Shown here one piece after another: positions 23,530-56,248 of a stretch of 64,000 nucleotides of DNA. Under the pieces are notes generated by a model. It worked only from the letters and a program-made list of their open reading frames with translations. It had not been told where the DNA came from and searched no databases. The translations under genes and the position numbers were made by a program. The DNA is taken from positions 4,562,914 through 4,626,913 of the forward strand of contig NC_134034.1 of NCBI RefSeq assembly GCF_964204645.1, in the 5' to 3' direction. How positions within the stretch are numbered: the first letter of the stretch is position 1; every line of letters starts with the position of its first letter. The DNA comes from Tubulanus polymorphus (lineage: Eukaryota; Animalia; Nemertea).

Positions 23530-23593
23530 GTTTCAGATCAGAGGGCGAGACACCACTCATCACCACAAGTAATTTTTTTTCCTAATAAATGGG
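23530..23593 (+). repeat. Left terminal inverted repeat of copy 1
   Basis: gtttcagatcagagggcgagacaccactcatcaccacaagtaattt (46 bp) matches the reverse complement of 41924-41977 apart from an 8-bp duplication there; imperfect similarity extends through ATAAATGGG. Confidence 0.9.
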
Positions 23594-26500
23594 GGAGAAT
23601 GAACACCAGACAGAAAACAATAATGTTAATAAAAATCAATATTATTGCCAATATTGTAAAAAATACATCGATACATCTCATAAAACACGACATGAAAAAA
23701 CTGCAAATCATATAAAAAATGTAATAAATTTTGAAACTCCAGAATATTCCAATGAAAGAAAAGTAAGATTAGAAAATATGAATGTGGATGAAATAAAATG
23801 TGAAGTTTGTAATGAATTTATAGTAAAAAGGAATTATAATAGACATCTCGAATCACAAAAACACCACCAAAATTTGAGTAATAATGTTTTAGGAAAAGAT
23901 TATTTTAACGATAAACCTCAAAAAGTAAAAAAACCAAGTTCAAAAACTAAATCCATTTCAAATAAACCTCACATGGAAAATGTTAGAAATTATATTGATT
24001 CACTAGAAATAAAAGATACAATTGAAATTTTAGAAACATTACATAGTAAAATTGGTCCTGCAGCTATTATATTTGGATTTTTTAAAGGTACAACAATAGA
24101 AGATTATAGTAAATTTAATGAAATAATAGAAAAAATACTAGATTTGATAACAGATGTTGAATATCCAAAAAATAGTATCTCTGGGAAAGTAAGTTTTATA
24201 AAGTCAGAAGAAAAAATGGATTATAATATTCAAACACTCTCTGAAGAAATAATTTCAAAAACGCAAATAAAAGAGAAGTTAGAAAAAAAATTTAATGAAT
24301 TTAAACGTCATATTGAAGAAAGATATTTTGAGGGTTCTGGCTTAACATTGAATGAAATTATATATTTAGATTTAAATGTTTACAATACAAAAAGGAATAA
24401 AACATCAAAAAGTAATAAAATGTTTAAAAATGATTCAAACTTTACAACAGAAAAGGATATTAAAGCATCATCTTATATTAAATTACCATTTACAACAAAA
24501 GCAGTAATAAATGTTCAAAATGAAGATAATAAATGTTTTCTATGGTCAATTATTAGTTGTTTACATCCAACACAGGAAAATGTTTGTAGAATAACAGATT
24601 ATCGGAAATATGAAACATTATATAAAATTGATCAATATCCAGTAACTATAAAAATGATTCCTAAAATAGAAAAAGTTAATAATTTAAAAATAAATGTATT
24701 CGAATTAATGCAATTACCAAAGACAAAAGGTGAAAATATTAAAGATTATACATTGGAAGCTTTATATTTAACAGAATATTATGATGATGAAAATGTTATG
24801 GATTTGTTATATTACAAAAAAGATGAAAATGAACATTATATGTGGTTAAAACAAATTGATTTATTCTTTAGAACAACAGAAAGTGATCATCATCGTAAAA
24901 TTTATCTATGTAGAAAATGTTTATCTAAATTTATGACTGAGAATGCGTTACTAAAAGATAAAGAATTATGTGATAATAAAGATTTTTGTAAATTAATAAT
25001 GCCAACAAAAAAAGATTGTAAGTTGAAATTTACTAATCATAAATTTAAAAATATTGTTCGTTTTGTAATTTATGGGGATTTTGAATCGTTGAATAAAGAA
25101 TTAACTGATCAAGATAGAAAAGAAATATATAACAAAAAGCAATTATTAAAATCAATGGATAAAGGAAATGAATTAAATGAAGACACAATACAAGACCCTC
25201 CAATTATAAATACAATTTAAAAAGTTCACCAAAGAGCTGCTGCTTATGGAATTTATATAAAATCAAATTATCCTGAATTATATGAAAGTCAATATATTTC
25301 TTTTAGAGGTGAAAATGTAGTTAATGATTTTTGTGATAAAATGATTGAATTAGAAAGTGATTTTACAAAATTATTAAACAAAAATAAAAGAATAGTTATG
25401 ACAAAAGAAGATGAAATTGATTTTAATTATGCAACTCATTGTTGTTATTGTGAAAAACATTTTTATTCATTTGATAAAAAAGTTAGAGATCATGATCATT
25501 TAAATTCAAAATATCGTGGAGCTGCTCATGAAGATTGTAATTTACAAGCTAAGAAAGTTAATTTCGTACCAATATTATTTCATAATTTATCAGGCTATGA
25601 TACCCATCTATTTATAAAACAATTATCGGGAAAATTGGGTGCAATTAATCAAGAAATAGAACAATATAATGCTATGCATGGTGTAAATGTAAGAAAATAT
25701 GATTTTAAACTATTAGCTAAAACATCTGAAAATTATATTTCATTTCAATTTGGTTGCATTAGATTTTTAGATTCTTATAGATTTCTAGCAAGTTCATTAG
25801 GTAAATTATCAAAAAGTTTAGTTGATAATGATTTTGTTATAACTCGATATTATTATCCAAATGAACAAGATTTTAAATTATTGAGATATAAAGGCGCAAT
25901 TCCTTATTCATTTTATAAAACACACAATGATTTTAATGTAACAGAATTATTAAAAGGTCAATTTTATGATCAATTAAAAGAGGAGTATGTGAAAGACGAA
26001 GTGTTTAATAGAACATTAAATATTTGGAACCATTTTAAGATGAAAAATCATGGCGAATTAGTTGATTTATATTTAAAATCAGATGTTATGATATTGGCTG
26101 ACATATTTAAAAAATTTAGAGAAGTTAATTTGAATCATTTTAATGTTGATCCTTGTTATTGCTACTCTAGTCCTGGTTTAACCTGGCAATGTGGTTTAAA
26201 ATATACAAATGTAGAATTAGATTTATTAAAAGAACCAGATATGGTTTTATTATTTGAAAAATCAATTAGAGGTGGAATTAGTGGTGTTATGGGAGATAGA
26301 TATTTTAAAGCAAATGATGAATATAAATTATTATATATTGACGCCAATAATTTATATGGTTGGGCAATGATGCAACCTCAACCATATAAAAATTTTATAT
26401 TAACAGAAGTTGAAAATGATGATAAAACTAATTGGGAAAGCGCAATTATGAGTTTAGAAGATGAAGCACCAATTGGTTATTTCTTTGTAGTTGATTTAGA

Positions 26501-28652
26501 ATATCCTGAAAATATAAAGTTTAAAACAAGAAACTTACCTTATTGCCCAGAACATTTAACTGTAAATGATAGTTATTTAAGTGAATACCAGAAGAAAATA
26601 AAACCGAAAGATCATGTTTTTACAGAAAAATTAATACTTACTCAAAATAATAAATACAATTATATTGTTCATTATAGAATGTTAAAATTTTATCTAAAAC
26701 AGGGAATGAAATTAAAGAAAGGACATAGATATATTGAATTTAATCAATCGAAGTGGTTAGAAAAATATATAGATTTCAATACTCAACAGAGAACCATATC
26801 AAAAATAGATTTTGAAAAAGATTTCTTCAAATTAATGAACAATAGTTTTTATGGTAAAACATGCGAAAGTATTAGAAATAGAAACGATATTGAATTAGTA
26901 AATAATTCTGAAAGATTAAGACATTTACAATCAAGTCCTAGACATTTAGGAAATAAAAGATTTGAAGATTATTTAACAGCAGTTAAATTAAAAAGAACGT
27001 CAATGAAATTTAATAAACCTATATTTATTGGTTCGACTGTTTTAGAAATATCAAAATTATTAATGTATGATTTTTATTATAATGTTTTACAACCACTTTT
27101 GGGGAAAAGCATATTGAAATATTATATTTTGATTCTGTAACAGCTGACAACCCATATTATTAAAATGTAATGCTAAAATATTGATAAGAAGAATTTCAGA
27201 AATAATTCCAAAACAAAATGAATGTTATATTTCATATGGTGAAAAAGAATTAATACAAATAAATGGTTTAATGGATGTTTGGACAAGAAATGGATGGAAA
27301 AAATTAAAGAATATTATTAGGCATAAAACAAATAAGAAAATCTATAGAGTTAGAACTAAATTAGGATTTGTAGATGTTACAGAAGATCATAGTTTAATTA
27401 AACGAAATGGCGATGAAATAAAACCAACTAATATAAAAATTGGAGATGAATTATTACATAAAAGATTTTTCCAAAGAATAAATCATATGTCATTTGATGA
27501 AATAATTGATAATATTTATAATATAGAACCCGAAACATTAGAAGAAAAAGAATATTTTATCAAAGGATTTTTCATGGGAGATGGTTCAGCAGGTGTGTAT
27601 AATTATGTTTGGGGTAATAAATATTGTTGGTATTTATGCAATCAAGACTTAAAATTATTAGAAAGAATAAAGAAATTCTGTGAAGAAGTTTATCCAAATA
27701 AAACATTTAGAATCATGGATGTTATGAAATCATCAGCAGTTTATAGAATACTTGTAAATAATCCTAAAGATTTTGCTATAAAATATGATGATGAATTCTA
27801 TATTCATGCAATAGTTAAAAGTAATACTTCAACAAAAGAAAAGATAGTTCCAGATTATGTATTAAATGCAAAAGATAATTTAAGAAAATGGTTCTTCATT
27901 GGATTCTACGCAGCAGATGGTACTAAAAAATTTACAAATGATAAAAAGATAACCTTTGCACAGAAAGGAAAAGTTGCTATATCAGGATTGAATATATTAT
28001 GCAGTTCATTAGGATTTAATATGAATATAGAATTAATTCAATCTAAACCAAATTATTTTAATTTAAGGCATGTAGAAAAAGATTTAACTGAAGAAGTTAA
28101 AGATTTATTTGAAATATATAACCCAACTGACTATGTTTATGATTTATCAACAGATGATGGAACATTCAATTCTGGGTTCTCATTAATCCAAAAAATACCG
28201 ATAGTTACATACTAAAAATCAAGACAAATGATATAACAAAAGACTTAAAAACATTAAAACATCATTTTGATTTTAGCAATTATCCCAAAGATCATGAACT
28301 ATTTAGCAATGATAATAAATAGATTCCCGGTAAATTTAAAGATGAACTAGGGGGTGATGAAATGATTGAATTTGTTGGGATAAGAAGTAAAATGTATAGT
28401 TATAGAACAAAAGATCATGAAGCTAAAAAGTTAAAAGGAATAACAAAACATGTGGTTGATAAACATATAGAATTTCAAGATTATATAAAGTGTTTATATA
28501 ACTCAATTGTAATGAAACACAAAATGAATTGTTTAAGATCAGAAGATCACGAGATGTACATTAATGAAGTTGAAAAAACTAGTTTGAATCCATTTGATGA
28601 TAAAAGGCATATTTTAGATGATGGTATAAAAACATTACCTTATGGTTATTAA
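23589..28652 (+). pseudogene. polB: Protein-primed family B DNA polymerase with intein; disrupted by frameshifts and a stop (ORFs 23589-25220, 25341-27140, 27181-28215, 28362-28652)
   Basis: N-terminal C2H2 fingers; INVQNEDNKCFLWS; ExoI IYGDFES; Endonuclease VII/HNH-like RDHDHLNSKYRGAAHEDCN; ExoII FHNLSGYDTH; IRFLDSYRFL; ExoIII YLKSDV; SIRGG; motif A YIDANNLYG; motif B KLMNNSFYGK; motif C YFD|intein|TDS; GKFKDE; RSKMYS; KLKGI; DDKR. Confidence 0.95.
27134..28196 (+). other. Intein with LAGLIDADG homing endonuclease in PolB motif C (copy 1)
   Basis: Block A starts SVTAD immediately after YFD; block B VTEDHS; LAGLIDADG motifs FIKGFFMGDGS and FFIGFYAADG; block F YVYDLSTDDGTF; ends KN followed by TDSY. 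One frameshift near each end; ~355 aa when restored. Confidence 0.93.
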
Positions 28653-29965
28653 AACATAAAATCAATATCATCATAATCGAAATCACTATTGGCTTCTTCA
28701 TTTTCATTTAATTTTTTAGGTTCTTCTTCCATTCCATTTTTCTGATTTACATAAAGTTCTATCTTGTTCCACATTTCATCTCGCTCTCTTTGTTTCTTTT
28801 TGTTTGTTAATTCGTCAAATGGAATTATAATATCTAGGTTTAAATAATTTACAATCTTATTTAAATAGAATTCATAATTTATTGAATCTGTTATTCTATT
28901 TTCCAAATGATACATTAATATTTGTTTGAATATTTTTTTTTATATTTTTCATATCTTCTTCTGTTAATTTAGGTTTTTCATAATAATCGTTAAGTAATAA
29001 ATATAAATACATTTTCTTTTGTTTTGTGTTAAATGTTGATGGAATAATTGTTTTTATAATATCTTTTTTAATTATTTCACCATTTTTATTTTCTATTATT
29101 TTTATTTTTTCAAGCCATTGCATATATTCTGGTGTATGATCTTCTATAGAACATATTTTGAAATTTCATCTAGATAATTTAATTTTGGATCTATGAGAAA
29201 ATTTCTAGTTTTTTCTTCACCCAATAAATTCTTTTGCCATCCACATTCATTACAAAATAACACAGTACCTTCTTGTTTTAAGGTCGCATAACTACATTGT
29301 GGGCATTTTTGTTTATAATTTATTGGTAATAGATCTTCATTAAGCTCTTGGTATTTTCTTACGTTTTCTTTATGTTTTATTGTTCTATTATGTAGATTTG
29401 AATTACTTGTTGTAATAATCAATTTACAATATTTACAATGATATGTTTTTCTTGTTAATTCATTATATTGTTTTTCTAACTTTTCAACTGTTTCTTTATT
29501 ATCTGGTAACGTTTTCTCATATTTTATTTTTTCTAATACATTATGTTTTCTTTCGTTGAATTCAGTTTCAAATTTATTAGAAATTTTATCTATATGTGCT
29601 TTACGAAATTGATGATTCTCCCAATCTTCTATATTTTCAGGGTTATATTTCATTCGACAAGGCTCACAGAAATGATCTTTTATATTATCCGTATCATAGA
29701 ATAAGAAAGGTCTTTTCCAAATAACTTCAGGTTCAACTTCAGCAGAATTACTATTACTTTCATTACTACCAACATTAGCCGTTGCGCCATTAATTCTACA
29801 CTTCTCTGAATGTTTTTTAACATAATTTCTTGAAAATAATTTATTACATTTTGGACAGTTTAGTTTAGGGGGTTTATAATTTTCATCATGTTTTTTCATA
29901 TGTCGAGCCATATTACTTTTTCTTAGAAGTTCACCACAAATTTCGCATGCTATCTTCTCATCCAT
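28649..29965 (-). pseudogene. Multi-zinc-finger protein (one gene split into three ORFs by frameshifts)
   Basis: CEICGELLRKSNMARHMKKH, CPKC, CKYC..H..H, CPQC..CNEC. Copy 2 reads through the junctions between these three ORFs in frame. Confidence 0.8.
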
Positions 29966-30033
29966 TTATTTAGGAAAAATTTTATTAAAATTAATTTTTA
30001 GTGATGAGCGGTAATTTTTTTATGTTATAAATA
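29966..30033. promoter_or_regulatory. Divergent promoter region between the zinc-finger and minor capsid genes
   Basis: 68-bp gap conserved in copy 2 (57034-57101). T-tract plus ATAAAT on both strands, and a CTCATCAC box shared with the TIRs. Confidence 0.55.
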
Positions 30034-30686
30034 ATGGTAGAATTAAAAGAATACAGAATATTTGTTGATTCTAGAAGACTTACAAATTATAAATCACATA
30101 ATTTACCAGTACAATTAGATAGAGAATTTAAGAATTGTGTAGATTTAAAATTAGTCAATATAAGTTTATGCAATTCTTTTTATAATACATCGAATAAAAC
30201 TGTTGAACATAGAGCCTTTTTAATTTTTGATAAAGGTAAAAATGAATGGTTCTCTATATTTTTAAAACCTGGGTTATATAATTTAGATACATTAGTACAA
30301 GAAATTAATAGAAAAGCCTGGCACAAATTAGGTAGTAGTTCTGGGTTTGGTATTAGATTTTAAAAAAGTGAGAGTTCTGATAGAATAAAGATAAGGTTGT
30401 CTAATAGTGAAAAACATAAATTTATGGTAAAAAAAACCTATAGCTAAACTGTTAGGAATTCTTCCTGATAGATCTTTTACAAATATTGACGCTACTACAC
30501 CAAACTTAATACCTTACACACATTTTTATAACGCAAATAAATTATAATTTAACAGAATGTGATTTCAAACCATGCATTCCTCGTTTTAATAATTTTAGAT
30601 TAGAAATAAGAAATCATAATGGATACTTAATTGATTTAAATAATTTCCCTGTAATTTATGAATTAGTTATAAGATGTAGAGAGTAA
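30034..30686 (+). pseudogene. Minor capsid (penton-like) protein, frameshifted and internally deleted
   Basis: IFVDSR...LDREFKNCVDLKLVNISLCNSFYN...PGLYN; C-terminal LEIRNHNGYLIDLN. The pattern is typical of single jelly-roll minor capsid proteins. Confidence 0.65.
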
Positions 30687-30702
30687 TTTTTTCACTATAT
30701 AA

Positions 30703-31041
30703 ATGAATATAACTGTTGGACCGAGTATATGTTTTGGGTTTGATTTTAAACATGGTAAAGAAATGAGAATTAAACTAAATGATGTAATTACTGATATAAA
30801 AAGTAAATCATTTAACAATGCATTAATGATTAATAAAGAAAATCATAATATAGAAAAAGTAATTGATTTAATTAAATCACCTTTAGAATATTATGAATTA
30901 AATGAAGATGGAATTATTGAAGATATTAAAAACATATTAACCGAAATATATGATAATCATAAAAGTAGTAATGAAATAAATGTTGAATTATTCATAAATA
31001 AGATAACTAAATATTTTGAAGATAGTAATTTGTTTGATTAA
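30703..31041 (+). CDS. Polinton hypothetical protein
   Basis: Intact 112-aa ORF, ATAAATG start, homolog at 55842-56232. Confidence 0.7.
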   Translation: MNITVGPSICFGFDFKHGKEMRIKLNDVITDIKSKSFNNALMINKENHNIEKVIDLIKSPLEYYELNEDGIIEDIKNILTEIYDNHKSSNEINVELFINKITKYFEDSNLFD

Positions 31042-31669
31042 TAAATGAGTGATAATAAGTGGATAATAACTGGATTATATAATGGAGCATTACTATCCGT
31101 TGGAACTGTTGGTTATTCAATGGTATTAAAAAAAGTATTTAAAATGGGAAGTGTTAATGTTGATAGATTTGATATAAATGATATTTTAAAATTAACATTA
31201 GCAGTTACTTTATCCAGGGAAGTGTGATGAGATGGAATACGGACGCTATTGTGCAGCTCTTGTCGAATGTGCGTTGTAATTGCCCTAAAGCCGATAACGG
31301 TTCGTCGGCGAGCGCTTTGTTACGTAACGCGCCGATAAGCGATAACCAGCGAGATCGGGAATCTCCGTAATAATTCAGTTGTTTCCGAATATCGGTTTTT
31401 CATCCCACAATAAACTTATATAAAAATTCCTCTGTAAACTGGTTAAACTCAACACCTGATTTCCCCTCATCAATTTTAGTCGATCAACTTGTATTCACAA
31501 TTGTCTTAAATTTAAGTGCCCCCTAGTTTGTCTCTTAACTGCTTCTCTTTAATCTGTTTTAGCGTGTAACTGTTTCTACGTTAATTTTCCTTTAGTTAGT
31601 ATCATCTCTGATTACTTGAATTAGTCTCTTTGTCTCTGGATTGTATATATCTCTCATAATTTCTGTATT

Positions 31670-31720
31670 ATTCATTATTTCTGAAGATGACTATTAGGAC
31701 ATAGACGAAACGTTGAATAA
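31670..31720 (+). ncRNA. Degenerate hammerhead-like motif in a Penelope pLTR-like remnant inside the TIR transposon
   Basis: CTGAAGA-tgactattaggacatagac-GAAACGT, preceded by a pyrimidine-rich tract as in the Penelope pLTR at 60730-61090. Confidence 0.45.
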
Positions 31721-32334
31721 ACTACTAACATTTTTGGACTTTTTCGTTATCATTGTGCGATTCTCTCTACATCGCTTCAGACGGATATAGTGTTTTATCA
31801 ATCGTGATATCGGTTCTTTCTGCTGTATTAAAATGGCAACGGTTGTCAACGAAATTATAAATGATGACGATTTTGACGATCTATTCTTTGATAGTGACGA
31901 ATTGGTTCAGATCGATACGGAAATATTACGGGAATCCGCTGGATCAGGATCAACTAATTCGGCCGATTCTAGTGAGTGTTATTCCTTTTGAATCAATGAA
32001 ATATCGGAATAGTTTCCACCTAATTGCAGGCACTTTATTCTTTCCTTTTCTTTTTCATATAGGTACTTCTCAGGCTCAGCTGACCAGAGACTGCGAACTG
32101 AACACGAGAAAACACACATACAGGTATTTTTTAAAATTTATTTTTATAATCAATACAATCCTTTTAGGTTATAAAATAATAAACGAATACAGAAAATAAT
32201 ATATAAACATAATATAAAAAATCCAGATAAGTACATGTTAAAATAATAATCATTATTATTATCTTCGCAGGAACACTATATATTTGGAAAAGGCTATGAC
32301 TGAAGTGATTAACCATCGAGTATTTAAATTCAGT

Positions 32335-32679
32335 TCAAATGGAATGGCAGCAGTACATTATGGAAAATCGATCGATAAAATTTTGACTACAAATACGTCG
32401 CCGTCCAGACTTGGAATTAACCAGTGGTTTACATGTCCATTGTTTTAATTTGATAGTCACAGGGACAGTTTTTTTAACGTTTTTGTTCTTACGCCATTTT
32501 TGTAATTTGACACGACACATATTACAGATATATATCGGGTACTGTTCAGTATCATCATCAAAATCAATGTTGAACAACTCCTTCACATGGCTTTTGAAAT
32601 TATTTTTATCGTTAGGACGACGATCCGGAGGTTTCGCATTTTTTCCACACAATCGACAAAGATCCATGACTAAAAACAA
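32335..32679 (-). CDS. Zinc-binding module resembling the RAG1 N-terminal / Chapaev 'Chapa' domain; truncated transposase N-terminus
   Basis: LCRLCG-x~23-LFNIDFDDDTEQYPIYICNMC. Confidence 0.6.
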   Translation of the reverse strand: MFLVMDLCRLCGKNAKPPDRRPNDKNNFKSHVKELFNIDFDDDTEQYPIYICNMCRVKLQKWRKNKNVKKTVPVTIKLKQWTCKPLVNSKSGRRRICSQNFIDRFSIMYCCHSI

Positions 32680-33456
32680 GAAAAGGTTAATTAAATGAGA
32701 TTGCTGATGCTATTTAGGCAACTTGGATTATATGGGGGACAATAATTTGTAGGCCTAATGTAAGCGTTATTAAGTAACATTATTATGTAGTAAATACACA
32801 TTTTAAAGATCATACTTCGTGTATATGTTTGTGTCGTAACATAGCAACATGACGTCAGAAACGAAAGCTGCGCGAGTCTGGGCCGAAATATTTGACATCT
32901 TCAAGGCCCAAATAACGCTAAACCCGGAATCGGAACGAACTGGCAAAAACATATGTTTAACACATAAAAACAGACTTTAATCACAATATAAATACTTAAT
33001 GTTCCGATACCGGGTTTCGGAGATATAGAAGAATAAAAATACATACCTTTTTGGACAAATTTTACGAGAAATTGTTGAATTTCAGCCGATTTTCTAGAGA
33101 AAAATATGTGTATACACAGCCACTTCCACGTTGTTCAATGAGCTGCAGTGCGCATGCGTAGTATCGATCGCAGAACATTTATCGGGCTAAAACAGTATTG
33201 CGGGTTGTTCTGCGACCGAATCAAAGTTGATGTTGACTGGTGTTCAGCTGGTAACACACACTCGATAAGCGTAGCTTACTGCTGTTGCGGTAACCTTTGA
33301 TGTACGGGCTGAATTGAATAGCCTACATCCGGCAATTAAAAGCGTCCGTATTCCATCTCATCACACTTCCCTGCTTTATCTAATTTAACTATTGATTATT
33401 TAGAAAAACAAAAATATATTCCTCCCATATAAATGCGTAATTATTTTACTAAATAA

Positions 33457-33882
33457 ATGGCTTCTGCAATTATAACTATTATAGGATCGGCAATTGTTAA
33501 CGCTTTGGCATTTACTGGTGGTGGTTATTTATTTAAACATATTAATAAAAATAGTTCATTAGGAGAACAAAGAAGACATAACTTAGCATCAGAGAAATAT
33601 AATAATAAAGCAGCAGAAGAATACAGAGAAAAACGACAAAACTATATGGATTATATCAACAAGGAATTATATGATCAGAAGATTTCACATAGAGATTTTC
33701 AATCAGTTGATGATGCAATGAGTTTATATAACGCAGTAACAAATAAAGAAAAATTACATCTATACAAACCTAAATTATCAGATTATTATACCCCAAGTAA
33801 AGAACAACAGAAATATGAAATAATATGGATTTTAGGTGGAACAGTTATTGTTATATTTGTAGCATATAAATTTACTAATTAG
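33457..33882 (+). CDS. Polinton membrane protein with N- and C-terminal hydrophobic segments
   Basis: MASAIITIIGSAIVNALAFTGGGYLF and IIWILGGTVIVIFVAY; homolog at 55170-55589. Confidence 0.8.
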   Translation: MASAIITIIGSAIVNALAFTGGGYLFKHINKNSSLGEQRRHNLASEKYNNKAAEEYREKRQNYMDYINKELYDQKISHRDFQSVDDAMSLYNAVTNKEKLHLYKPKLSDYYTPSKEQQKYEIIWILGGTVIVIFVAYKFTN

Positions 33883-33901
33883 TAATTTTTTTGCTTAATA
33901 A

Positions 33902-34317
33902 ATGGAAGATAAAGTTGACAATATTGATATTATTCCTCATGATATAAATAAAACTAATTAAAAACATATTTAGAAAAACAAATATTAGAATTTGAAAGTG
34001 AAAAATATTTAAAAAGTTAAATTATATATTATCTTATTATCAGTGGTTCGGTTACAATTAGTTCTGTAATAACATTTCTAGCAATATTCAGTCCATTTAC
34101 ACCTTTAGCTATATCAATTGGCGTGTTAGGATTAAGTTCAAGTGTTTTAACCGGTATAAGTTCAAAATTAAATATAAAAAGTAATAAAGAAAAAATTAAA
34201 ACTAATATAAAAGAAATTAATAAATTAAAGAACACACCAGATTATATCATAAGTTTAAATGGTCATATAACAGTTGAAGAACAAGATAAATTATTAAAAG
34301 AATTAATAAATTATTAA
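33902..34317 (+). pseudogene. Two-TM coiled-coil protein (intact in copy 2)
   Basis: Homolog of 54717-55151, with stops and a deletion here. Confidence 0.8.
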
Positions 34318-34333
34318 TTTTTTAATTATATAA

Positions 34334-35723
34334 ATGGTAGATAGTTTTCCAAAAGCTTTCCAATATAATAAATCAATTAAATATAATATTCCAGCAATAG
34401 ATTTTAATAAAGATATTACATATAGAAATGAAGTTTTAGATTCATTAACTAATTTAGAAATTTATGTCACTGAAACTAATAATTTTAATGCAAAGATGGA
34501 AAATATATTTCATGTATATTTAATTGATTTTAAAAAATTGAAAGATGAAAAACAATGGTTATTAAAATCTAATATGAAGTATTGGCAGAACCAATTAAAT
34601 TTTGCTGTTTATTGTGCAACAACAGGTTGTGGAATTAGTTGGAATGATCATTTGAATAATTCTAAATATAAATTAATTCAAAGTTTATTTAGATTTCATA
34701 CATACTTTCAAATCAGAATAATATTAAATGAATTAGAGTGCGCTTTACCAGGATCTAGGTATTTTAAGGAATTAGATAATAATATTAATTAATCAAAGTT
34801 TTATAAAATTTGTAATGAATTTAATATAGATATAAATAATTCTGATTTTAGAACAAAAATTGGAACAATAAGATCACTTCCTTGCCCTAAAAAGATTGCA
34901 GAATATTGTGCACTTCCCATACCATCTAATAGTTTTTATAATATCTATAATAATAAATGAGGTTATGGTAAAATAGAAACTAAGGATTTAGAAACATTAA
35001 ATTTCAATAAATTACCGAAATTTTATGATCAATTAAAACAAGAAAACAATAATGGTTGGGTTTATTTTATTTTAGAAAATAATGAAGGTTTTACAAAATC
35101 AGGTATAGACAGAATAAATCAATCTATTAGAACTTATTTGATAAGTATTCTAGGTGCACAAGTTGAAACAAGATCACCGATAATTGGAAATTTGAATACA
35201 TCATTCGATACACAAAAACAATTTAAAGTTTTATTTGAAGATTCAATTCATAATGATAAAAATAGATCGATTCCAGAAAACATTGTAAGATATCAAAATT
35301 ATTTAGATAAATCAGATATTAGATTAAATTATTGTATAGGCACTAATCTATTAATAATTTCTAATGATTTAGTATTAAAGATGGGAAATATAATTGGTTA
35401 TAATAATCTAATTAAAACTGCAACAATAAATAATTCATTTGGATTAAATGATATAAATAAAAAAGATAATTACTGCTCCAAAATTAATGGAAGGTGAAAA
35501 AAATAAAAAACATATTCAATCAACAGAAACTAAAACTTAGAATATTAAATTGGATAATGATTCCAAAATAAAAGATTACAATACTACAGAAAATATTAAA
35601 ACTGATAATATTCAACATGATATAATTAAAACTGATAATGATAATAAATCCCATGAAAATACTAAATTAGCTTTAACTTGTATAGGAATTGTTATAGGTG
35701 GAATATTATATTTTAAATTTTAA
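34334..35723 (+). pseudogene. Conserved Polinton protein (NMKYWQNQLNF..ATTGCG family) with C-terminal TM segment
   Basis: Homolog of the intact 434-aa ORF 53396-54700; internal stops and a frameshift. Confidence 0.8.
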
Positions 35724-35739
35724 TTTTTCTATTATATAA

Positions 35740-37188
35740 ATGGATGTAGAAGGTGGAGAAGATATTGGAATGGATAATTTTGATGAACCTGGTATAAGTG
35801 ATGAACAACCACCTGATTTTGATGAAACAAGTTTCAGTAACGAAAATGAAACAGCATATAATTCTAATTTAAATACAACTGCATATATTGATAAAACACG
35901 TTCAAAGATAAATACTGAAAATGAAGTTACAGAAATAACAAAAAAAGAATTAGAATATGACGAATTAACTGATGATTTCAAACCAATATTAGAAAAATCT
36001 GGATTCAATATAACAAATAAAGGTGTAAATTATTTAGTAAAAGATTTGAAATATTTAAATGGTGATTCTTATTGGCATTTGAAAGATGACTATTATTTTA
36101 AGATTTCTTCTAATAAAAGTCTTGATAAAATAATAACAAAATCAACTTTTATTAAATTAGAACAATCTAGAATTAAGAAAATCAATAATGATGTTATAAC
36201 TGATGTTACAGAACAAGAGATAAATCAAAGTAGAAGAGAATTTAATCGAAGAAATAAAGATTTTTTGAAGATAATTAGTGAAAATTTAGAGCCAGAAACA
36301 ATTCCTAAAGAAGATATAACTTCCAAAACTAGTAGACCTAATTCAAGAGAAGTTCAAACTGAAAAACTTTTACCGAAGGGATTACTTGATGCAACAGATC
36401 AACAATTAGAAGATTTAGATATATTTTCTGGTAAAGCAATAAGAGAAATTGAAAGTATAAGACATGCATCTGATAAAATTGCGCATGAAAAAGAAATAAG
36501 AGATATTAAAATTAGATTTTTAGAAAAAGAATTAACTGATAAAAATAAAGAAATAGAAAAAATAAAATTAGATAGAGATAATAAAGTTATTGAAGAAAAT
36601 GAATTTAGAAAAAGAAATGCGTATTTAGAAAAAGAAAAAGATGATTTAGAATATAACATAGAATTACAAAAAGAAGAAATTAAATTATTATTAAAATCAT
36701 ATGATTATAATATTAGTAGATTAAAAGATGTTTTTAAAAGATATCTAATAAAACCAGATTCTAAAATATCATTGAAAGATAGAATAAAATTATTATTTAA
36801 GTTTGAAGGAATAACAATTCTTTCAATTCTAACAGCTGTAACTATGTTATTTACAACAATTGGTTTAGCAATATCAAATGCTTTGAAATCTACTCCTACT
36901 CCCAATAAAGCGGATAAACCTCCAGATAATAATTCTATACAAGATAAAGTTAAAGATGGTTTAAAGAAATTAGCAAAATATTTATGGGAACTATCTAAAA
37001 AATCTGCTGCAGCTTTACCAGGAATTATTGCATCAATTGTTGGTTTTATATTGAAATCTGCTGGGAATATTCTTAAATTTGCTGCTGAACATATTATTTT
37101 ATTTTTAATTACAGTTCTAAGTGCAATTATATTTTGGTTAGTGAATATGATATCAAAAAGATATCAAGAAAAAAATAATAAAAAATAA
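35740..37188 (+). CDS. Acidic N-terminus, coiled-coil, multi-TM protein
   Basis: Intact 482 aa with a long coiled coil, then ITILSILTAVTMLFTTIGLAI, LPGIIASIVGFIL and IILFLITVLSAIIFWLV. Confidence 0.85.
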   Translation: MDVEGGEDIGMDNFDEPGISDEQPPDFDETSFSNENETAYNSNLNTTAYIDKTRSKINTENEVTEITKKELEYDELTDDFKPILEKSGFNITNKGVNYLVKDLKYLNGDSYWHLKDDYYFKISSNKSLDKIITKSTFIKLEQSRIKKINNDVITDVTEQEINQSRREFNRRNKDFLKIISENLEPETIPKEDITSKTSRPNSREVQTEKLLPKGLLDATDQQLEDLDIFSGKAIREIESIRHASDKIAHEKEIRDIKIRFLEKELTDKNKEIEKIKLDRDNKVIEENEFRKRNAYLEKEKDDLEYNIELQKEEIKLLLKSYDYNISRLKDVFKRYLIKPDSKISLKDRIKLLFKFEGITILSILTAVTMLFTTIGLAISNALKSTPTPNKADKPPDNNSIQDKVKDGLKKLAKYLWELSKKSAAALPGIIASIVGFILKSAGNILKFAAEHIILFLITVLSAIIFWLVNMISKRYQEKNNKK

Positions 37189-37212
37189 ATAATTAATTTT
37201 TTTGTTAAATAA

Positions 37213-38459
37213 ACGAGTGGGAGTTATATAAGTCCTTCTAAGATTTCTAGAATATCTAATGCTATTAAAGCAGAAAGATCACATCATATAATTACTCATT
37301 ACCCTTCAAATATTAATCCCGATGAAACTTTATACGTTAGAATCCCTCGATTAACACAAAATACTTTTTATGTCCCAAATAGTATTTATTTATCAGCTGA
37401 TATAAAAGTAATTGGTCATGATAATAATTATGTTGTTGATAATGTTGGGAGATATTTGATTAAAAAATTAACTATAAAGATTGGTCCAGAAACAGTTTTC
37501 TCATCATTGATTATAATTTATTTATGCATTATAAAGATTTATGGTTAACTAAAGAAAATAGAAATAATATGATATTTCAGGGTATTCAATCGGAAAACCA
37601 TAATAAATTAAGATCTGAAGCCAATAATGCAGTAGTAACTAATGCTGTAGATAATTTGATTAAAAAGATTTATCGAAGCAAATATAAAATTCCATTAGAC
37701 TTTGAATTGATAAATAATAATGCACCTTTATATAAATACGCAATTCAAGAAGATATTATATTTGAGATAACATTTGCTCCTGTAAATGAAATTGTATTAT
37801 CTAGCGTTGTTAAAGATATGGGTTATAAATTATCAAATATATGTTTAGAATATGACACAGTAACTAATGAAAATATTGCTAGCACAATTCAAACTCAATA
37901 CAATCAAGGAGTTTCATTATTATATGATTATATTGATAAATTTAAAACTGTAACTATTAATGCAAATGATGAAATAATTAATGAGAATATTAACTTCCCA
38001 AGAAGATCTATTAAAGGTATATTAATATTTTTTACCATTGCAACATATTCTAATGGCGCAATAAAGGTAGATAATTATTATAATCCTGAAATAACAAAAG
38101 TAGAAATAACTATCGAAGGAATAGCAAATAAAATATTTTGTCAAGGAATGAGAATGATTGATCAGTGGCCAGAAATTAGAAAACATTTTATGAATGAAAA
38201 AATAAAATCATTTGAAAATTGTAATATTAATCAAATTGATTATTATACCGGTAATAAATATGCATTATGGTTAGATTTTAGAAGAACAGAGGATAATTCA
38301 TTGCATGGTTCTGGGAAAAAACTACAGAACACTAAAGATGGAATACAATTATTTATGAAAAAGAAAAAAGGAAGCTTAAATTTCAAAATGCATATTTATA
38401 TTATATCTGATGCGCAATTAAATATTGTAAATTCACAATTAGATAGTATTCAATATTAG
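37213..38459 (+). pseudogene. Major capsid protein (double jelly-roll, inferred); start ATG>ACG and one frameshift
   Basis: About 415 codons, beta-strand-rich; PSNINPDETLYVRIPRL, NVGRYLIKKL, LEYD, PRRSIKGIL, ALWLDFR. Lies directly upstream of integrase and ATPase. Copy 2 has ATG. Confidence 0.75.
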
Positions 38460-38489
38460 AAATATAAAGTTAATATTAAGGATATATAA

Positions 38490-39617
38490 ATGGGAGGTAA
38501 AAAAACTCCTAATACTAAAGAACAATATTTAAGAAATTTATATTACAACCCTGAGAGTTCGGTTGCTTATTCTTCTACTAAAAATATATGGCGTCAAGTA
38601 AAACAAGATAAATTAGATAAGATAATTCCACACAATTTAGTTAAATATAAAGATATAAATGAATTTATGTTAGAACAACCAACATACACAACACATAAAA
38701 AAATTGTTAGAACATATAAAACTCGTAAAACTATGGTAAGTTATGTAGATCAACAGTGGCAAGGAGATTTAATTGATATGAAAAATGTTAAGAAAGATAA
38801 TGATGATTATTGGTGGTTATTGAATATATTTGATATTTTTAGTCGTTATGTATGGAGTTTCCCACTTTATAGAAAAGATGCTGTACAAACATCAAATGTT
38901 TTAAGAAAATTTCTTTCGGATGATAAACTAAAACCAGAAAAAATACAATTTGATGATGGAAAAGAGTTTGATAATTCACTTGTTCATGAACTCTTAGATA
39001 ATCATAATATTAATTATTTTTCAACAAAATCGGATAAAAAAGCAGCAGTTGTTGAACGATTTAATAGAACATTAAGAACAAGAATGTGGAAATATTTTAC
39101 AGCAAATAATACTTTTAAATGGATTGATGTTTTACCAAAATTGATAGAAGGATATAATAATTCTTATCATTCTTCTATTGGAATGAAACCTATTGATGCT
39201 AGAAAACCTGAAAATGCTGAAATTGTTTGGAATAATTTATATGGAGCATTTCTTGTAGATGATTTTGGTGAACGTAAATTTAAAGTTGGTCAAAATGTTA
39301 GAATTTCTAAGTATAAAAAGATATTTGACAAAGGATACGATCGAAATTTTACTAGGGAAATATATAAAATAAAAAAGGTAATAACAACAAAACCATATGT
39401 CTATAAATTAGAAGATTTAGATGGTGAAGAAGTTGATGGTTACTTTTACGAAGAAGAATTAAGTTTAACTACTGAAAATCTAGAACAAGAATATAAAATT
39501 GAAAAAGTATTAAAAACAAAAACTATTAAAAGAAAAAAATATTCTTTAGTAAAATGGGTTGGATGGCCAGATAAATTCAATGAATGGATATTATCAAGTA
39601 AAATTAAAACTATATAA
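38490..39617 (+). CDS. int: Retroviral-type (rve, DDE) integrase with C-terminal chromodomain
   Basis: QWQGDLIDM, QFDDGKEF, VVERFNRTL, YNNSYHSSIGMKP, KFKVGQNVRISK; chromodomain YKIEKVLK...LVKWVGWPDKFNEWI. Intact. Confidence 0.95.
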   Translation: MGGKKTPNTKEQYLRNLYYNPESSVAYSSTKNIWRQVKQDKLDKIIPHNLVKYKDINEFMLEQPTYTTHKKIVRTYKTRKTMVSYVDQQWQGDLIDMKNVKKDNDDYWWLLNIFDIFSRYVWSFPLYRKDAVQTSNVLRKFLSDDKLKPEKIQFDDGKEFDNSLVHELLDNHNINYFSTKSDKKAAVVERFNRTLRTRMWKYFTANNTFKWIDVLPKLIEGYNNSYHSSIGMKPIDARKPENAEIVWNNLYGAFLVDDFGERKFKVGQNVRISKYKKIFDKGYDRNFTREIYKIKKVITTKPYVYKLEDLDGEEVDGYFYEEELSLTTENLEQEYKIEKVLKTKTIKRKKYSLVKWVGWPDKFNEWILSSKIKTI

Positions 39618-40226
39618 ATGAATAAGGAATTATTTATATTTGAGCCTCATAATATGTTAATATCTGGTGTAACAAATTGTGGAAAAACTTATTTTATATT
39701 AAATTTATTAGAAACTGTTTATGAAAACTATTTTGATAATATAGTATTATTTTGTCCAACATATGAATTTAATCAAACTTATGATAGAAATATTACTAGA
39801 AATAATAAATTTATTATATTAGATCCTAAAACAGTAAAAGAAAATTTAGATAATTGTATTAAAATAGCAATTGATATTTATAAAGGATCAAATACATTAT
39901 TCATTATAGATGATTGTGCTAATCTACATGATTCAAAAGTTAGAGAAAGTGAGTTATGTTATTTAGCTTTCGCTGGGAGACATTTCGGGATAACAACATG
40001 GGTTTTAAATCAAAAATATAATTCAATTGTTAAAGACTTTAGAGAAAACATTAGATTTCTAGTTTTATTCTACAACAAAGATAGAAAATCGATGAAAAAT
40101 GCACTTGAGGAAAATGATATCATTCCACGTGATTTACATAATGAATATATGGATAAGTTGAAAAATATTAAAAGATCAAAATTACTATTTAGATTACAAC
40201 TCCCATTTAAATATGAATTTATTTAA
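39618..40226 (+). CDS. A32/FtsK-HerA-like genome packaging ATPase
   Basis: Walker A SGVTNCGKT, Walker B FIIDD, GRH motif, Q and R-x-N motifs. Intact. Confidence 0.92.
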   Translation: MNKELFIFEPHNMLISGVTNCGKTYFILNLLETVYENYFDNIVLFCPTYEFNQTYDRNITRNNKFIILDPKTVKENLDNCIKIAIDIYKGSNTLFIIDDCANLHDSKVRESELCYLAFAGRHFGITTWVLNQKYNSIVKDFRENIRFLVLFYNKDRKSMKNALEENDIIPRDLHNEYMDKLKNIKRSKLLFRLQLPFKYEFI

Positions 40227-40227
40227 A

Positions 40228-40490
40228 TTCAATTAGTTTGTTAATCTAGTTGAATTCTAGTTATTGGTAGTTGTAACAAAAATCAAATAGATTTAACAAT
40301 ATTTTAACTAGCTTGTTAATCTAGTTTAATTCTAGTTACATTCTAGTTGAATTCTAGTTGTTAGTAGTTGAAACAAAAATCAACTAGAATGTAACAAGAA
40401 ATAAACAAAAACAACAATATTTCAACTAGCTTGTTAATCTAGTTGAATTCTAGTTACATTCTAGTTGAATTCTAGTTGCAACATCACAAC
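40228..40490. repeat. Internal array of ~11-bp TTCTAGTTGAA-like units in direct and inverted orientation
   Basis: Repeated ctagttgaattctagtt / aactag; conserved in copy 2 at about 48760-49045. Confidence 0.8.
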
Positions 40491-40507
40491 TAATTTTTTT
40501 GTTATAA

Positions 40508-41045
40508 ATGGTAGGTGAAAAGAAAATAAAATCTAAAAATGGTGATGTTCCAATTGAAAAAACTTTAAATGATTTAGGAATAACAGAAAACAAATTAATT
40601 CCAGATGATGGTGCTTTTAATAATGTTACAACAAATAATAATTATGAATATTATCTTTATTGTAAACATCAATTAGAAATATTAATAGCATCTGGAAAAT
40701 TTAAAAATTTTGTCGGTAAAAATTTAACTTATAATGAATTAGATACAATGAAATCAGATGAAATTATTAGATTATTTAAGATTTATGAAGCCAGCTAGAA
40801 TTAATGACGCGATATCAGAAAATGTAGTAAAAGGTTATAGTAAATTATGTAATTATATACTACCAATTGAAGATGAAAATAGATTATATTCAGATTTAAA
40901 AAATGATTATTTAGTTATGACTGAATTAAATAAATGGATTGGATATTTATCATTTCAATTAGGCGGATTTATGACATTATTATCAACTGGGGTTATAACA
41001 TTTTCAAATATTGAAAGTAAAAATATTTCTATAATAAATGAGTGA
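40508..41045 (+). pseudogene. Polinton hypothetical protein (frameshift near 40790)
   Basis: ORFs 40508-40798 and 40758-41045; copy 2 reads YETARTAR across the junction. Confidence 0.7.
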
Positions 41046-41391
41046 GGTGGAAGAAGTGAAGAAAAAACCGAGATCACAGAAACAAATTGAATGGTCTCGG
41101 CAATTAGGAATTAAATCACAAGAATATAAAAAAGCTGTAAAAGAAAAAATAAGTAATAAAAATGTTAATAAAAATGGTGAAAATATTGTTATTTCTAATC
41201 CTTCTAATGATAGAATATTTGATAAATGTCTATATTTTACAGTTGGATTTGTAATTGTATTCATTTTGATTGGGTGTAATTGGTATAAGAAATCAAATAA
41301 AATTCATGATATTTATAATTCTGAAACAACTGCTATCAAAAATGAAAATACTTCTGAAATTCCAAAATTGACAATAAAAAAAATTGATTAA
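41038..41391 (+). CDS. Small single-TM protein with basic N-terminus
   Basis: KKKPRSQKQIEW and LYFTVGFVIVFILIG; ATAAATG start. Confidence 0.7.
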   Translation: MSEVEEVKKKPRSQKQIEWSRQLGIKSQEYKKAVKEKISNKNVNKNGENIVISNPSNDRIFDKCLYFTVGFVIVFILIGCNWYKKSNKIHDIYNSETTAIKNENTSEIPKLTIKKID

Positions 41392-41640
41392 TATTTTAGA
41401 AAAAAAGCAAAAAAATAATTGAATATCACCATGTGGGTGCCGTACGGCACCATCTCACTACTTTTGTCTATCACTGTGTGGGTGCAGTTTATGGCACCAT
41501 CTATGCGGAGCAATTAAATTGTCCAGATAAATCATTTCGGATTCTTGATATTCATTATTTTTATTAACTTATTTTTTTTAATTTAATCAACAATTTCTAA
41601 ATCATGATGTCCATCTTCATTTTTTCCATGATAGATTATT

Positions 41641-41910
41641 TTAAATCCTTCTAAATTTTTTTAATTCCTCTGTACTCAATGAAACCCATTTATCAGGTAA
41701 AAATACTTTAAATTCTCGCGATGTACTAACATTACAGTAGCTTAAATTCGCTGATACTTTCTCTCCATATTTAGTTTTTATCTTTTCTAATTTCAATATT
41801 TTATGTTCAATTTCTTTTGTAACATCAATTAACTTTTTTATTTCAAATTGTTTTTTTGCTGGTTTTATTCTGTTATTTATTGTTGCTAAGAATGCTTTTC
41901 TATCTCCCAT
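41641..41910 (-). CDS. Small terminal protein transcribed inward from the right TIR (TKYG...VFLP motif)
   Basis: 89-aa ORF whose ATAAATG start abuts the TIR. Confidence 0.6.
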   Translation of the reverse strand: MGDRKAFLATINNRIKPAKKQFEIKKLIDVTKEIEHKILKLEKIKTKYGEKVSANLSYCNVSTSREFKVFLPDKWVSLSTEELKKFRRI

Positions 41911-41977
41911 TTATAGGGAAAACAAATTACTTGTGGTGATGAGTGGTGTCTCGCCCTCTCGCCCTCTGATCTGAAAC
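41906..41977 (-). repeat. Right terminal inverted repeat of copy 1 (extra 8-bp tcgccctc unit)
   Basis: Reverse complement of 23530-23593. Confidence 0.9.
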
Positions 41978-48438: not shown

Positions 48439-48740
48439 TTTCTAGCTGTTCTCGCGGTTTCATAAATCTTAAATAATCTAATAATTTCATCTGATTTCAT
48501 TGTATCTAATTCATTATAAGTTAAATTTTTACCGATAAAATTTTTACATTTTCCAGATGCTATTAATATTTCTAATTGATGTTTACAATAAAGATGATAT
48601 TCATAATTATTATTTGTTGTAACATTATTTAAAGCACCATCATCTGGAGTTAATTTTGTTTCTGTTATTCCTAAATCATCTAAAGTTTTTTCAATTGGAA
48701 CATCACCATTTTTAGATTTTATTTTCTTTTCACCTCCCAT
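48439..48740 (-). pseudogene. Truncated homolog of the 40508 gene
   Basis: MGGEKKIKSKNGDVPIEK...; cut by the LINE fragment. Confidence 0.8.
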
Positions 48741-48759
48741 TTATATAACAAAAAAATTA

Positions 48760-52052: not shown

Positions 52053-52072
52053 TTATTTAACAAAAAAATTAA

Positions 52073-53379: not shown

Positions 53380-53395
53380 TCATATAATAAAAAAA

Positions 53396-54700: not shown

Positions 54701-54716
54701 TTATATAATAAAAAAA

Positions 54717-55151: not shown

Positions 55152-55169
55152 TTATTTAGAAAAAAATTA

Positions 55170-55589: not shown

Positions 55590-55613
55590 TTATTTAGTAA
55601 AATAATTACGCAT

Positions 55614-55835: not shown

Positions 55836-55841
55836 TTATTT

Positions 55842-56232: not shown

Positions 56233-56248
56233 TTATATAATGAAAAAA

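Follow-up and report, generated by a model that had tools for sequence, protein, structure and literature searches.

Genes of a decayed Maverick/polinton-type element in Tubulanus polymorphus start at a signal resembling poxvirus late promoters

Nearly every gene of a Maverick/polinton-type virus integrated in the genome of Tubulanus polymorphus starts at a signal of the poxvirus late type, which suggests that the element borrows the RNA polymerase of a large virus. We therefore favour, with moderate confidence, the view that its genes share a viral promoter of the late type and that a co-infecting large DNA virus provides the RNA polymerase which reads it, probably giving leaderless transcripts. 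Within this view a poxvirus-type helper fits the shape of the motif best and takes the larger share of our confidence, an iridovirus-type helper being the main alternative.

The element occupies approximately positions 23531-41977 of the window (the whole stretch of 64,000 nucleotides analysed) and is a decayed endogenous virus of about 18 kb. It possesses the Maverick/Polinton set of protein-primed DNA polymerase B (pPolB), rve integrase, A32-type packaging ATPase, double jelly-roll major capsid protein (MCP) and terminal inverted repeats. The features of this copy (copy 1) and its surroundings are as follows.

23530..23593, + strand: left terminal inverted repeat, about 62 bp; matches the right end; holds the motif and the start codon of the polymerase gene
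23570..23592, + strand: example of the bipartite motif (TAATT and T tract, spacer, TAAATG)
23589..28652, + strand: protein-primed DNA polymerase B with N-terminal zinc finger (PF03175, E 5e-17; zf-U1); TAAATG start
27135..28210 (approximate ends), + strand: intein with LAGLIDADG endonuclease in the polymerase (PF14890, PF14528)
29144..29965, - strand: zinc-finger protein with C2H2 fingers in tandem (CTCF-type fingers, E 3e-5); TAAATG start
30034..30686, + strand: candidate minor capsid protein, broken; homolog of the 254-aa ORF of L003; TAAAT 3 nt before ATG
30703..31041, + strand: 112-aa gene, no assigned function; TAAATG start
31045..33432, + strand: small hydrophobic gene of about 73 aa, split by an insertion; TAAATG start
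31215..33373, no strand: foreign insertion of 2.16 kb; has a 7-bp duplication and terminal inverted repeats of its own; most copies are without it
33457..33882, + strand: 141-aa gene, no assigned function, kept in relatives; TAAATG start
33902..34317, + strand: two-helix membrane protein of about 144 aa, broken; weak SLATT match; TAAATG start
34334..35723, + strand: conserved gene of about 434 aa, broken in copy 1; 397 homologs; TAAATG start
35740..37188, + strand: 482-aa coiled-coil protein, hydrophobic C-terminus; TAAATG start
37213..38459, + strand: double jelly-roll MCP; start codon and frame broken, upstream T tract intact
38490..39617, + strand: rve integrase and chromodomain (PF00665, above cut-off; PF00385); TAAATG start without T tract
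39618..40226, + strand: A32-type packaging ATPase (PF04665, E 2e-13); TAAATG start, its TAA being the integrase stop
40508..41045, + strand: gene of about 200 aa, no assigned function, broken; TAAATG start
41038..41391, + strand: 117-aa gene, no assigned function; TAAATG start
41586..41910, - strand: gene of about 110 aa, no assigned function, broken; TAAATG start within the right terminal repeat
41906..41977, - strand: right terminal inverted repeat; matches the left end
48440..64000, - strand: second copy, decayed, about 91% identical; extends past the window end

The polymerase gene is split into four frames (23589-25220, 25221-27140, 27148-28215 and 28323-28652). Tens of element copies are present in the host genome, and read depth at the left end rises from about 12 to hundreds over 23531-23537. 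The second copy carries a Penelope-type insertion at about 58001-61163, and the 2.16-kb insertion of copy 1 is skipped by 675 reads of run X5. Run X7, perhaps RNA, yielded a single partial record. The target-site duplication of Mavericks/Polintons is 6 bp; no direct repeat common to both flanks was found here, where the ends are uncertain by about 5 nt and the flanks perhaps rearranged. The Ulp1/adenain cysteine protease is a marker of Mavericks/Polintons, and also of adintoviruses as surveyed by Starrett et al. Among the scanned ORFs it had no match, and the largest orphan ORF was without a fold match. The element had been said to encode no RNA polymerase, and indeed no scanned ORF gave a significant match to an RNA polymerase family. 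Poxvirus-derived genes were found neither in the window nor in the scanned ORFs of the related loci L001-L017. Rfam had no match over 23000-64000, and capsid and ATPase queries retrieved no relatives from viral_contigs or genome_contigs.

The structure model of the MCP homolog P0001 (77% identical) is a double jelly roll (pLDDT 84.5) that matches iridovirus, PBCV-1 and virophage capsids with TM 0.53-0.63, and on this basis the MCP is predicted to have the double jelly-roll fold. The 30034 product is a candidate minor capsid protein by its size and strand-rich look, with no Pfam family and no PDB sequence match. For the gene of about 434 aa a good model was obtained (pLDDT 81), which had no match in BFVD, PDB (best Z 4.0), Pfam or Atlas and does not imply a new fold; two further orphan ORFs had no PDB sequence match below E 0.5. 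The C2H2 zinc-finger protein could be the element's own regulator.

ATAAATG is present at all 13 starts where the sequence-only reading had placed it. The start at 30034 likewise reads as described, and the MCP gene of copy 1 has a broken start codon, the homologous site of copy 2 having the motif. Starts were checked by alignment to intact genes of the relatives L003 and L001; alignments begin at residue 1 for the genes at 30703, 33457, 34334, 39618 and 40508 and at residue 2 for the MCP. TAA|ATG occurs at 13/15 starts compared with 22/268 out-of-frame ATGs of the same coding sequences (p 1.5e-11), and ATAA is not equally common before internal ATGs (ATAA|ATG at 13/15 starts, 8/268 out-of-frame ATGs), the starts at 23589 and 41910 sitting in the two terminal repeats and hence not being independent. 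The host part of the window has the motif at 47 of 1255 ATGs. Among 12 homologous starts of the second copy, nine have TAA|ATG, two have TAAAT just upstream and one is altered. One signal is used on all genes, polymerase and integrase included.

The T tract proposed upstream of most starts was upheld in part: its strict form, (G/T)TAATTTTTT, occurs at only 6/15 starts; a looser TAATT stands exactly 19 nt ahead of the ATG at 9/15. For the 30034 gene TAATT lies at -22, an equal distance to TAAAT. The integrase, the ATPase and the 41038 gene have no T tract. A T at -9 from TAAAT is present at 11/13 window starts. Intergenic gaps are as short as claimed (12/14 neighbour gaps below 70 bp), too short for ordinary 5′ UTRs, and the proposed lack of introns fits the collinearity with intact homologs.

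The motif was followed in a clade of 15 related metagenomic loci (L001-L014 and L017) and a more distant outgroup (L015, L016 and L018-L020). TAAATG was found at 52/62 clade starts (about 4 expected) but only 1/15 outgroup starts; these counts are not independent, as the loci share kinship, and the clade limit was set after the motif was seen, on a quick capsid tree (SH-aLRT 91). Loci L021-L025, short and with weak capsid matches, lie outside both counts (motif at 0/5 starts). Chance arising from AT richness is ruled out by the counts of starts versus out-of-frame ATGs and of clade versus outgroup. In 48/50 de-duplicated starts of relatives a T stands at -9 from TAAAT, and a T at -10 occurs at 39/50 compared with 19/64 non-start TAAATG sites; the motif has an additional AA at -15/-14, and 49/50 starts have a purine after the ATG. 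The base at -3 is T in 54/62 clade starts and A in 10/15 outgroup starts. Five of the ten clade exceptions retain a TAAAT-like sequence at most 4 nt from the ATG, which argues that the motif acts as a DNA element and not as a stop codon. In 5/8 clade pairs the ATGs of divergent genes are spaced by 19, 28, 28, 28 and 30 nt. Conservation spans capsids that are only 52-60% identical, changes of gene order and loci of 36-44% GC, suggesting that the motif is under selection and is not a relic.

In vaccinia late promoters the start codon is overlapped by TAAAT(G), the 10th nucleotide upstream is a conserved T (PMC11980589), and further T residues lie 5-7 bp from TAAAT (PMC5294985). Slippage at a TAAAT-type initiator is known from fish poxvirus homologs (PMC4542343), and at a TAAAN-type one from yeast linear elements (PMC6211774). 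The proposed likeness to such promoters (PMC11980589, PMC5294985, PMC4542343) is borne out in both parts, TAAAT followed by G on the start codon and a fixed T in a T-rich core about 10 nt upstream, and extends to the purine after the ATG and to divergent genes served by the signal placed back to back. Here the T peaks at -9, one base off the 10th nucleotide given for vaccinia, where the counting rule of PMC11980589 may differ. Unlike poxvirus promoters, the polinton motif has the extra AA, and the signal precedes nearly every gene of an integrating element of 18 kb in which no RNA polymerase gene was found. For the early terminator TTTTTNT no enrichment at gene ends was seen: at most 80 nt from the stop it occurs on the sense strand of 9/51 ORFs compared with 14 antisense, and such a role was rejected. 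TTTTTNT is also rarer within coding strands (ratio 0.35-0.39), where A runs are likewise depleted. In the literature we found no report of a TAAATG-type start motif in polintons.

Likeness to poxviruses was taken from the literature, that to iridovirus-type viruses from counts in loci. TAA|ATG precedes 14/37 starts of iridovirus-type loci, among them L147 (4/9) and L148 (4/6) with MSV199, DUF3627 and KilA-N genes, and L267 (6/20), whose bin capsid is closest to the Singapore grouper iridovirus MCP (E 5e-123); these loci were chosen by a motif-containing pattern, so their rates are inflated. In unselected giant-virus loci the count was 95/1130. The claim that the motif points to poxviruses alone was thus not sustained: in iridovirus-type records, too, TAAATG opens many genes, and the helper need not be a poxvirus. 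Motif scans of viral_contigs gave 33/498, 76/665 and 93/796 starts among the matches listed, with no long locus near the clade rate and none recognised as poxvirus. A point against the favoured reading is that so short and AT-rich a motif is also found, less often, at the gene starts of other large viruses.

The proposed promoter would consist of one signal of fixed spacing, an A/T tract, in which a T stands 9-10 nt upstream, and then TAAATG. By analogy with vaccinia, transcription would begin inside the AAA, a 5′ poly(A) leader would arise by slippage, and the mRNA would lack an encoded leader; this might be why the base at -3 can be T and a stop codon can directly precede the ATG. Mavirus and CroV are a precedent for such mimicry (10.1101/068312), and as in mavirus the element may be silent until a helper infects the cell, may replicate and be packaged in or near the helper factory, and may then reintegrate by its own integrase. 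Against this, the polymerase and integrase genes carry the signal like all the others, and the polymerase of a poxvirus, being cytoplasmic, would have no access to a provirus in the nucleus, which leaves the first activation step unexplained.

An iridovirus-type (Pimascovirales) helper instead of a poxvirus, a sub-case of the helper-dependent reading, is rather unlikely in our estimate. In favour of this sub-case, the relative L003 has a dNK-type kinase, an enzyme common in iridoviruses, which had no match in G001 or G002. TAA|ATG is frequent in L147, L148 and L267, at rates inflated by the motif-based choice, and the intein derives from large viruses other than those on the pox side. Iridoviruses begin in the nucleus (PMC5294985) and would therefore have access to an integrated copy. 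Against such a helper, the upstream T is weaker in iridovirus-type starts (8/14 versus 48/50 at -9), and published promoter work on IIV-6 indicates AAAAT at 15-19 nt ahead of the start site. A comparably small chance is given to autonomous expression, in which the zinc-finger protein of the element would recruit host RNA polymerase II to start at or near an AT-rich core and the likeness to poxvirus promoters would be convergent. The tandem C2H2 fingers of the 29965 gene, the tens of host copies, as nuclear transposition could give, and the ease with which short AT-rich motifs converge agree with this, but the zinc-finger gene itself bears the same motif, and 19-30 nt between divergent ATGs leave no space for two Pol II start regions and UTRs. 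Moreover, scanning ribosomes on a templated leader would initiate poorly where an in-frame stop and a T at -3 precede the ATG, as in the clade; the more distant relatives have A at -3.

It is very improbable that the polymerase is supplied in trans by an RNA-polymerase-encoding linear element, as pGKL2 does for pGKL1, or that the motif is an ancestral relic. Yeast linear elements do combine protein-primed polymerases, a TAAAN initiator, poly(A) leaders and their own RNA polymerase (PMC6211774), but the scanned ORFs contain no RNA polymerase gene, and a relic is at odds with a motif kept across divergent capsids and changes of gene order. About as improbable is a translational or genome-packing role of TAAATG, be it stop-start coupling on polycistronic RNA or frame-insulating stops. 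Genes are densely packed, and integrase and ATPase are joined in this way in the window and in L003. The TAA, however, ends an upstream ORF of at least 50 codons at only 1/13 window starts and 3/57 starts of relatives, and coupling, accounting for few sites, was rejected. Besides, terminal genes and divergent genes have the motif as well, its stop is TAA throughout and never TAG or TGA, and a partner lies at a fixed position upstream.

The intein is of the Pol-c type of large DNA viruses (YGD|TDS site, Ser first, Asn last, LAGLIDADG endonuclease); junctions were read in the closest relative P0137 and in mimivirus P0215, Pfam matches in the window. It was gained once, by polinton ancestors, polinton inteins forming one old clade. 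Polymerases with related inteins are delta-like, not pox-like. The idea that a present helper explains the intein therefore failed, and the intein was rejected as a marker of such a helper, as the motif is rare in genomes with related inteins (95/1130).

Mavirus has a maturation protease, and none was found in the polinton here; pGKL1/2, to our knowledge, have no capsid and no integrase. As in mavirus/CroV (10.1101/068312), there are a pPolB, an rve integrase, integration into the host genome and a single promoter motif across element genes that resembles a large virus's late motif. Unlike here, the CroV motif is TCTA, the capsid is of another lineage, the mavirus helper is known and induction has been shown. 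pGKL1/2 share linear DNA, protein priming and a TAAAN initiator but have their own RNA polymerase and capping enzyme and an early-type upstream element (PMC6211774). With Mavericks/Polintons and adintoviruses (PMC8502044, PMC11071308, neither of which mentions promoters) the element shares pPolB, rve integrase, A32 ATPase, double jelly-roll capsid, terminal inverted repeats and many genomic copies; it differs in the undetected protease, the very short repeats holding terminal-gene promoters, the pPolB intein and the lack of a visible target-site duplication at the 23531-41977 insertion. AHEV_PLV1/2, CBEV_PLV1 and Ca_PLV1 are likewise polinton-like and have been proposed as poxvirus hyperparasites in animals, being tied to poxviruses by co-purification and shared genes (PMC11296320). 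These entomopoxvirus-associated PLVs differ in being about 12-14 kb, with an adenovirus-type protease and without rve integrase, and the main text of PMC11296320 does not mention promoter, motif, TAAAT, transcription or intein.

All virophages and PLVs that have been cultured and have a helper come from protists and depend on Imitervirales or Algavirales (10.64898/2026.09.29.755237). We tentatively regard it as a serious possibility that a widespread, apparently protease-less, integrase-bearing Maverick clade represents animal provirophages, silent in the germline and wired to an undiscovered poxvirus-type (or iridovirus-type) late transcription. This bears on how animal Mavericks are transcribed and whether a helper is needed, a question made testable by a defined bipartite promoter. 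It predicts an unseen large DNA virus in hosts of the clade and offers a sequence-only sorting of Mavericks into helper-dependent and autonomous ones; if it is true, promoters could predict the helper class. The outgroup motifs differ from that of the clade, being TATAG in L015/L016 and TAAAA in L018, and such lineage shifts would then record helper switches.

Positions 23531–41977 of the window are occupied by a Maverick/polinton-type endogenous virus (copy 1) with the following features:

protein-primed polymerase B (PF03175), copy 1
rve integrase with chromodomain, and A32 ATPase, copy 1
double jelly-roll capsid protein, copy 1; the folded model of its homolog P0001 (77% identical) matches iridovirus, PBCV-1 and virophage capsids
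terminal inverted repeats of ~62 bp, both ends of copy 1

A second, inverted copy starts at 48440 and is ~91% identical to copy 1 across 12 kb; decay has affected both. In run X5 the raw-read depth was ~12 over the flank and 170–900 over most of the element, which corresponds to tens of element copies in the host genome if the flank is single-copy. LINE and Penelope elements are present in the host DNA. The sole eukaryote-named capsid match was a bivalve protein (40%), which suggests an animal host.

Gene starts in the window were verified by homology to intact genes of the metagenomic loci L003 and L001. All 13 starts for which the sequence-only reading had listed ATAAATG do read so. As in-frame methionines cannot follow a stop codon, out-of-frame ATGs of the same genes served as the control. 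TAA directly preceded the ATG at 13 of 15 starts compared with 22 of 268 out-of-frame ATGs, and ATAA at 13 of 15 compared with 8 of 268, so that ATAA is not equally common at internal ATGs; the two terminal starts, which lie in the inverted repeat common to both ends, amount to a single independent case. The genes are tightly packed as proposed, with 12 of 14 gaps below 70 bp. A further word, (G/T)TAATTTTTT, had been placed upstream of most starts, yet its strict form occurs at just 6/15. A looser TAATT lies 19 nt upstream of the ATG at 9/15 starts, and a tenth start has the identical TAATT–TAAAT distance.

Capsid alignment yielded 25 metagenomic loci. In L001–L014 and L017, whose capsid proteins are 52–84% identical to P0001, TAA preceded the ATG at 52 of 62 ORFs of at least 100 aa (~4 expected), in counts whose independence is overstated because the loci share ancestry and include near-duplicates, for a clade whose limits were set after the motif was seen. 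These counts do not include the DNA of a large group at ~40% capsid identity. The outgroup loci L015, L016 and L018–L020 had the motif at only 1 of 15 starts; L021–L025, short and weakly matching (0/5 starts with the motif), were excluded. In a quick tree the clade loci and the window fell into one group (37 of 57 rows, SH-aLRT 91). The motif is kept in loci of 36–44% GC (L005–L007) and despite changes in gene order, and accessory genes missing from copy 1 likewise start with it. The deoxynucleoside kinase and HNH-like accessory genes at L003:10340–10981 and L001:5568–6083 have TAAATG starts. Outside the clade, TATAG/TATAA-like words stand right before most ATGs of L015 and L016, and L018 has an A/T tract plus TAAAA before the ATG at 3/4 starts; these other start motifs could mark other helper types.

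De-duplication left 50 of 57 starts and 64 of 75 non-start TAAATG controls for a position profile. T was found at −9 from TAAAT in 48/50 starts compared with 27% of controls, and at −10 in 39/50 compared with 19/64. The upstream T is a second feature, independent of TAAATG. In the starts of the relatives, A's peak at −15/−14 from TAAAT, and a purine follows the ATG at 49 of 50 starts. Several observations favour a promoter over a role in translation. The TAA ends an upstream ORF of at least 50 codons at only 1/13 window starts and 3/57 starts in relatives. At base −3 the clade has T in 54 of 62 starts, unlike the usual eukaryotic context, but the outgroup has A there in 10 of 15. Half of the clade exceptions (5/10) still have a word resembling TAAAT no more than 4 nt from the ATG, and several of the remaining ones are broken genes or internal starts. 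In divergent pairs of the clade and window the two ATGs are 19–30 nt apart in 5/8 cases and 64–72 nt apart in the rest.

Vaccinia late promoters, as described in the available text of PMC11980589, carry TAAAT(G) across the start codon, and the 10th nucleotide upstream is a conserved T amid further T's; PMC5294985 places a T-containing core 5–7 bp from TAAAT. The polinton motif is alike in both respects, with TAAATG over the start codon and a T at about the same upstream distance, a likeness that is drawn from published promoter descriptions rather than from poxvirus start counts. Poxvirus transcripts begin within this element and gain a 5′ poly(A) through slippage (PMC4542343). By analogy, the most likely reading, held with moderate confidence, is that the polymerase of a helper virus uses the signal as a late-type promoter, which would give leaderless mRNAs with 5′ poly(A) and leave the genes silent when no helper is present. 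Promoter mimicry is reported as established for mavirus (10.1101/068312). No RNA polymerase subunit gene was found among the ORFs scanned. Yeast linear elements have a TAAAN initiator too, but use their own polymerase with it (PMC6211774, available text). The main explanation without a helper, that host Pol II reads these starts together with a C2H2 protein, draws on the fact that the element itself encodes such a protein; we regard it as unlikely. Dependence of the element on a helper is likely.

The sequence-only reading took the promoter to be poxvirus-like. The motif and the upstream T do match vaccinia late promoters, but a label restricted to poxviruses is weakened by iridovirus-type starts. 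A back-to-back motif scan led to the iridovirus-type records L147 (4/9 starts) and L148 (4/6), which encode MSV199, DUF3627 and KilA-N genes; L267 has 6/20 and comes from a bin in which the capsid protein best matches an iridovirus MCP. Pooled with L266, this motif-selected sample has TAA before the ATG at 14 of 37 starts, with T at −9 in only 8/14. TAAATG starts are not described for invertebrate iridoviruses in the available text of PMC5294985, according to which iridoviruses begin replication in the nucleus. A nuclear phase would ease the problem that an integrated copy is out of reach of a cytoplasmic polymerase; in the case of mavirus, entry of a viral late factor into the nucleus has been proposed as the way round it (10.1101/068312). 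Asfarvirus-type late promoters, given as TATATA (PMC11788076), fit less well. By motif fit, a pox-type helper would be best and an iridovirus-type helper next. Egoviruses are described as the closest poxvirus relatives; Trichomonas polintons received KilA from them, and basal egoviruses occur in marine sediment. The available text of the paper on them (10.1101/2024.03.23.586382) holds no promoter data.

Two further poxvirus or giant-virus links did not hold. Sense-strand copies of the early terminator TTTTTNT come after 9 of 51 gene ends and antisense copies after 14, so the word does not mark 3′ ends; the tract of T's at gene ends is part of the start of the next gene. TTTTTNT is depleted inside window genes (6 observed, 15.4 expected). 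Relative to codon-shuffled sequence, its frequency on coding strands is 0.35–0.39 of expectation for three clade sets (window; L001, L003, L004, L010), 0.58 for the outgroup and 0.94 for AT-rich viral loci. Runs of A inside genes are depleted as well, so this depletion has no clear cause. The intein had been attributed to a present helper. Its best matches are other polinton polymerases (64%, 50%, 46%), followed by RNA-primed polymerases including that of mimivirus (40%). A quick tree of 62 rows groups the window with five polinton-type rows in a single clade (support 100), whose sister it does not settle; among the labels, P0139 and P0140 are fragments confirmed as polinton-type by BLAST to the window extein, and P0141 is so labelled by Pfam only. 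Among the closest viral polymerases, two are delta-like, and no poxvirus enzyme ranks high among their PDB matches. Around related giant-virus polymerases, in 80 loci taken without regard to the motif, TAA preceded the ATG at 95 of 1130 starts, and none of the loci came to half. Because these loci seldom use the motif and the polinton inteins form one clade, the intein is a record of old contact with a large virus, not of a present helper. Intein invasions in general have been suggested (PMC11071308, available text). The intein (27135–28210) is of Pol-c type within a protein-primed polinton polymerase, and six such form one clade among giant-virus inteins; one cluster has 136 members, and a single contig of run X1 lacks roughly this stretch.

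The promoter architecture is real and clade-wide in a Maverick lineage, and apparently unpublished. Our literature search, in which subscription journals were thinly covered, found no paper reporting a TAAATG motif in polintons. The word promoter is absent from the available text of the adintovirus (PMC8502044), preplasmiviricot (PMC11071308) and cryptophyte PLV (PMC12220804) papers and of the 2026 polisuvirus preprint. PLVs co-purified with entomopoxviruses are published (PMC11296320); they have a protease and lack the rve integrase, whereas copy 1 has that integrase. The main text of that paper, as available, holds no promoter analysis, and its supplements may bear on it.

Capsid homologs in the P0009 cluster are labelled as Bartonella proteins in RefSeq, on contigs <2 kb, and are probably host DNA inside those assemblies. 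A conserved protein of ~434 aa (34334–35723 and 53396–54700) has 397 homologs and a confident model; sequence and fold searches gave no match for it. Copy 1 contains an inserted DNA element (31215–33373) that looks non-autonomous and has terminal repeats and a 7-bp duplication; inserted in copy 2 is a Penelope-type retroelement (58001–61163) with RT and GIY-YIG whose inverted ends are long. An Rfam scan of 23000–64000, in which group I introns were looked for, gave no match. The AT-rich stretch 44300–46800 contains an inverted repeat (44485–44701 / 46147–46363) and a 234-aa ORF, shows no kinship to copy 1 by tblastx, and is adjoined by a 31-bp tandem array (47147–48125). Between the ATPase and the next gene, both copies have repeats of CAACTAGA/TCTAGTTG words (40230–40490 and 48760–49045), possibly an origin or binding array; comparable tracts lie downstream of the ATPase in L001 and L010.
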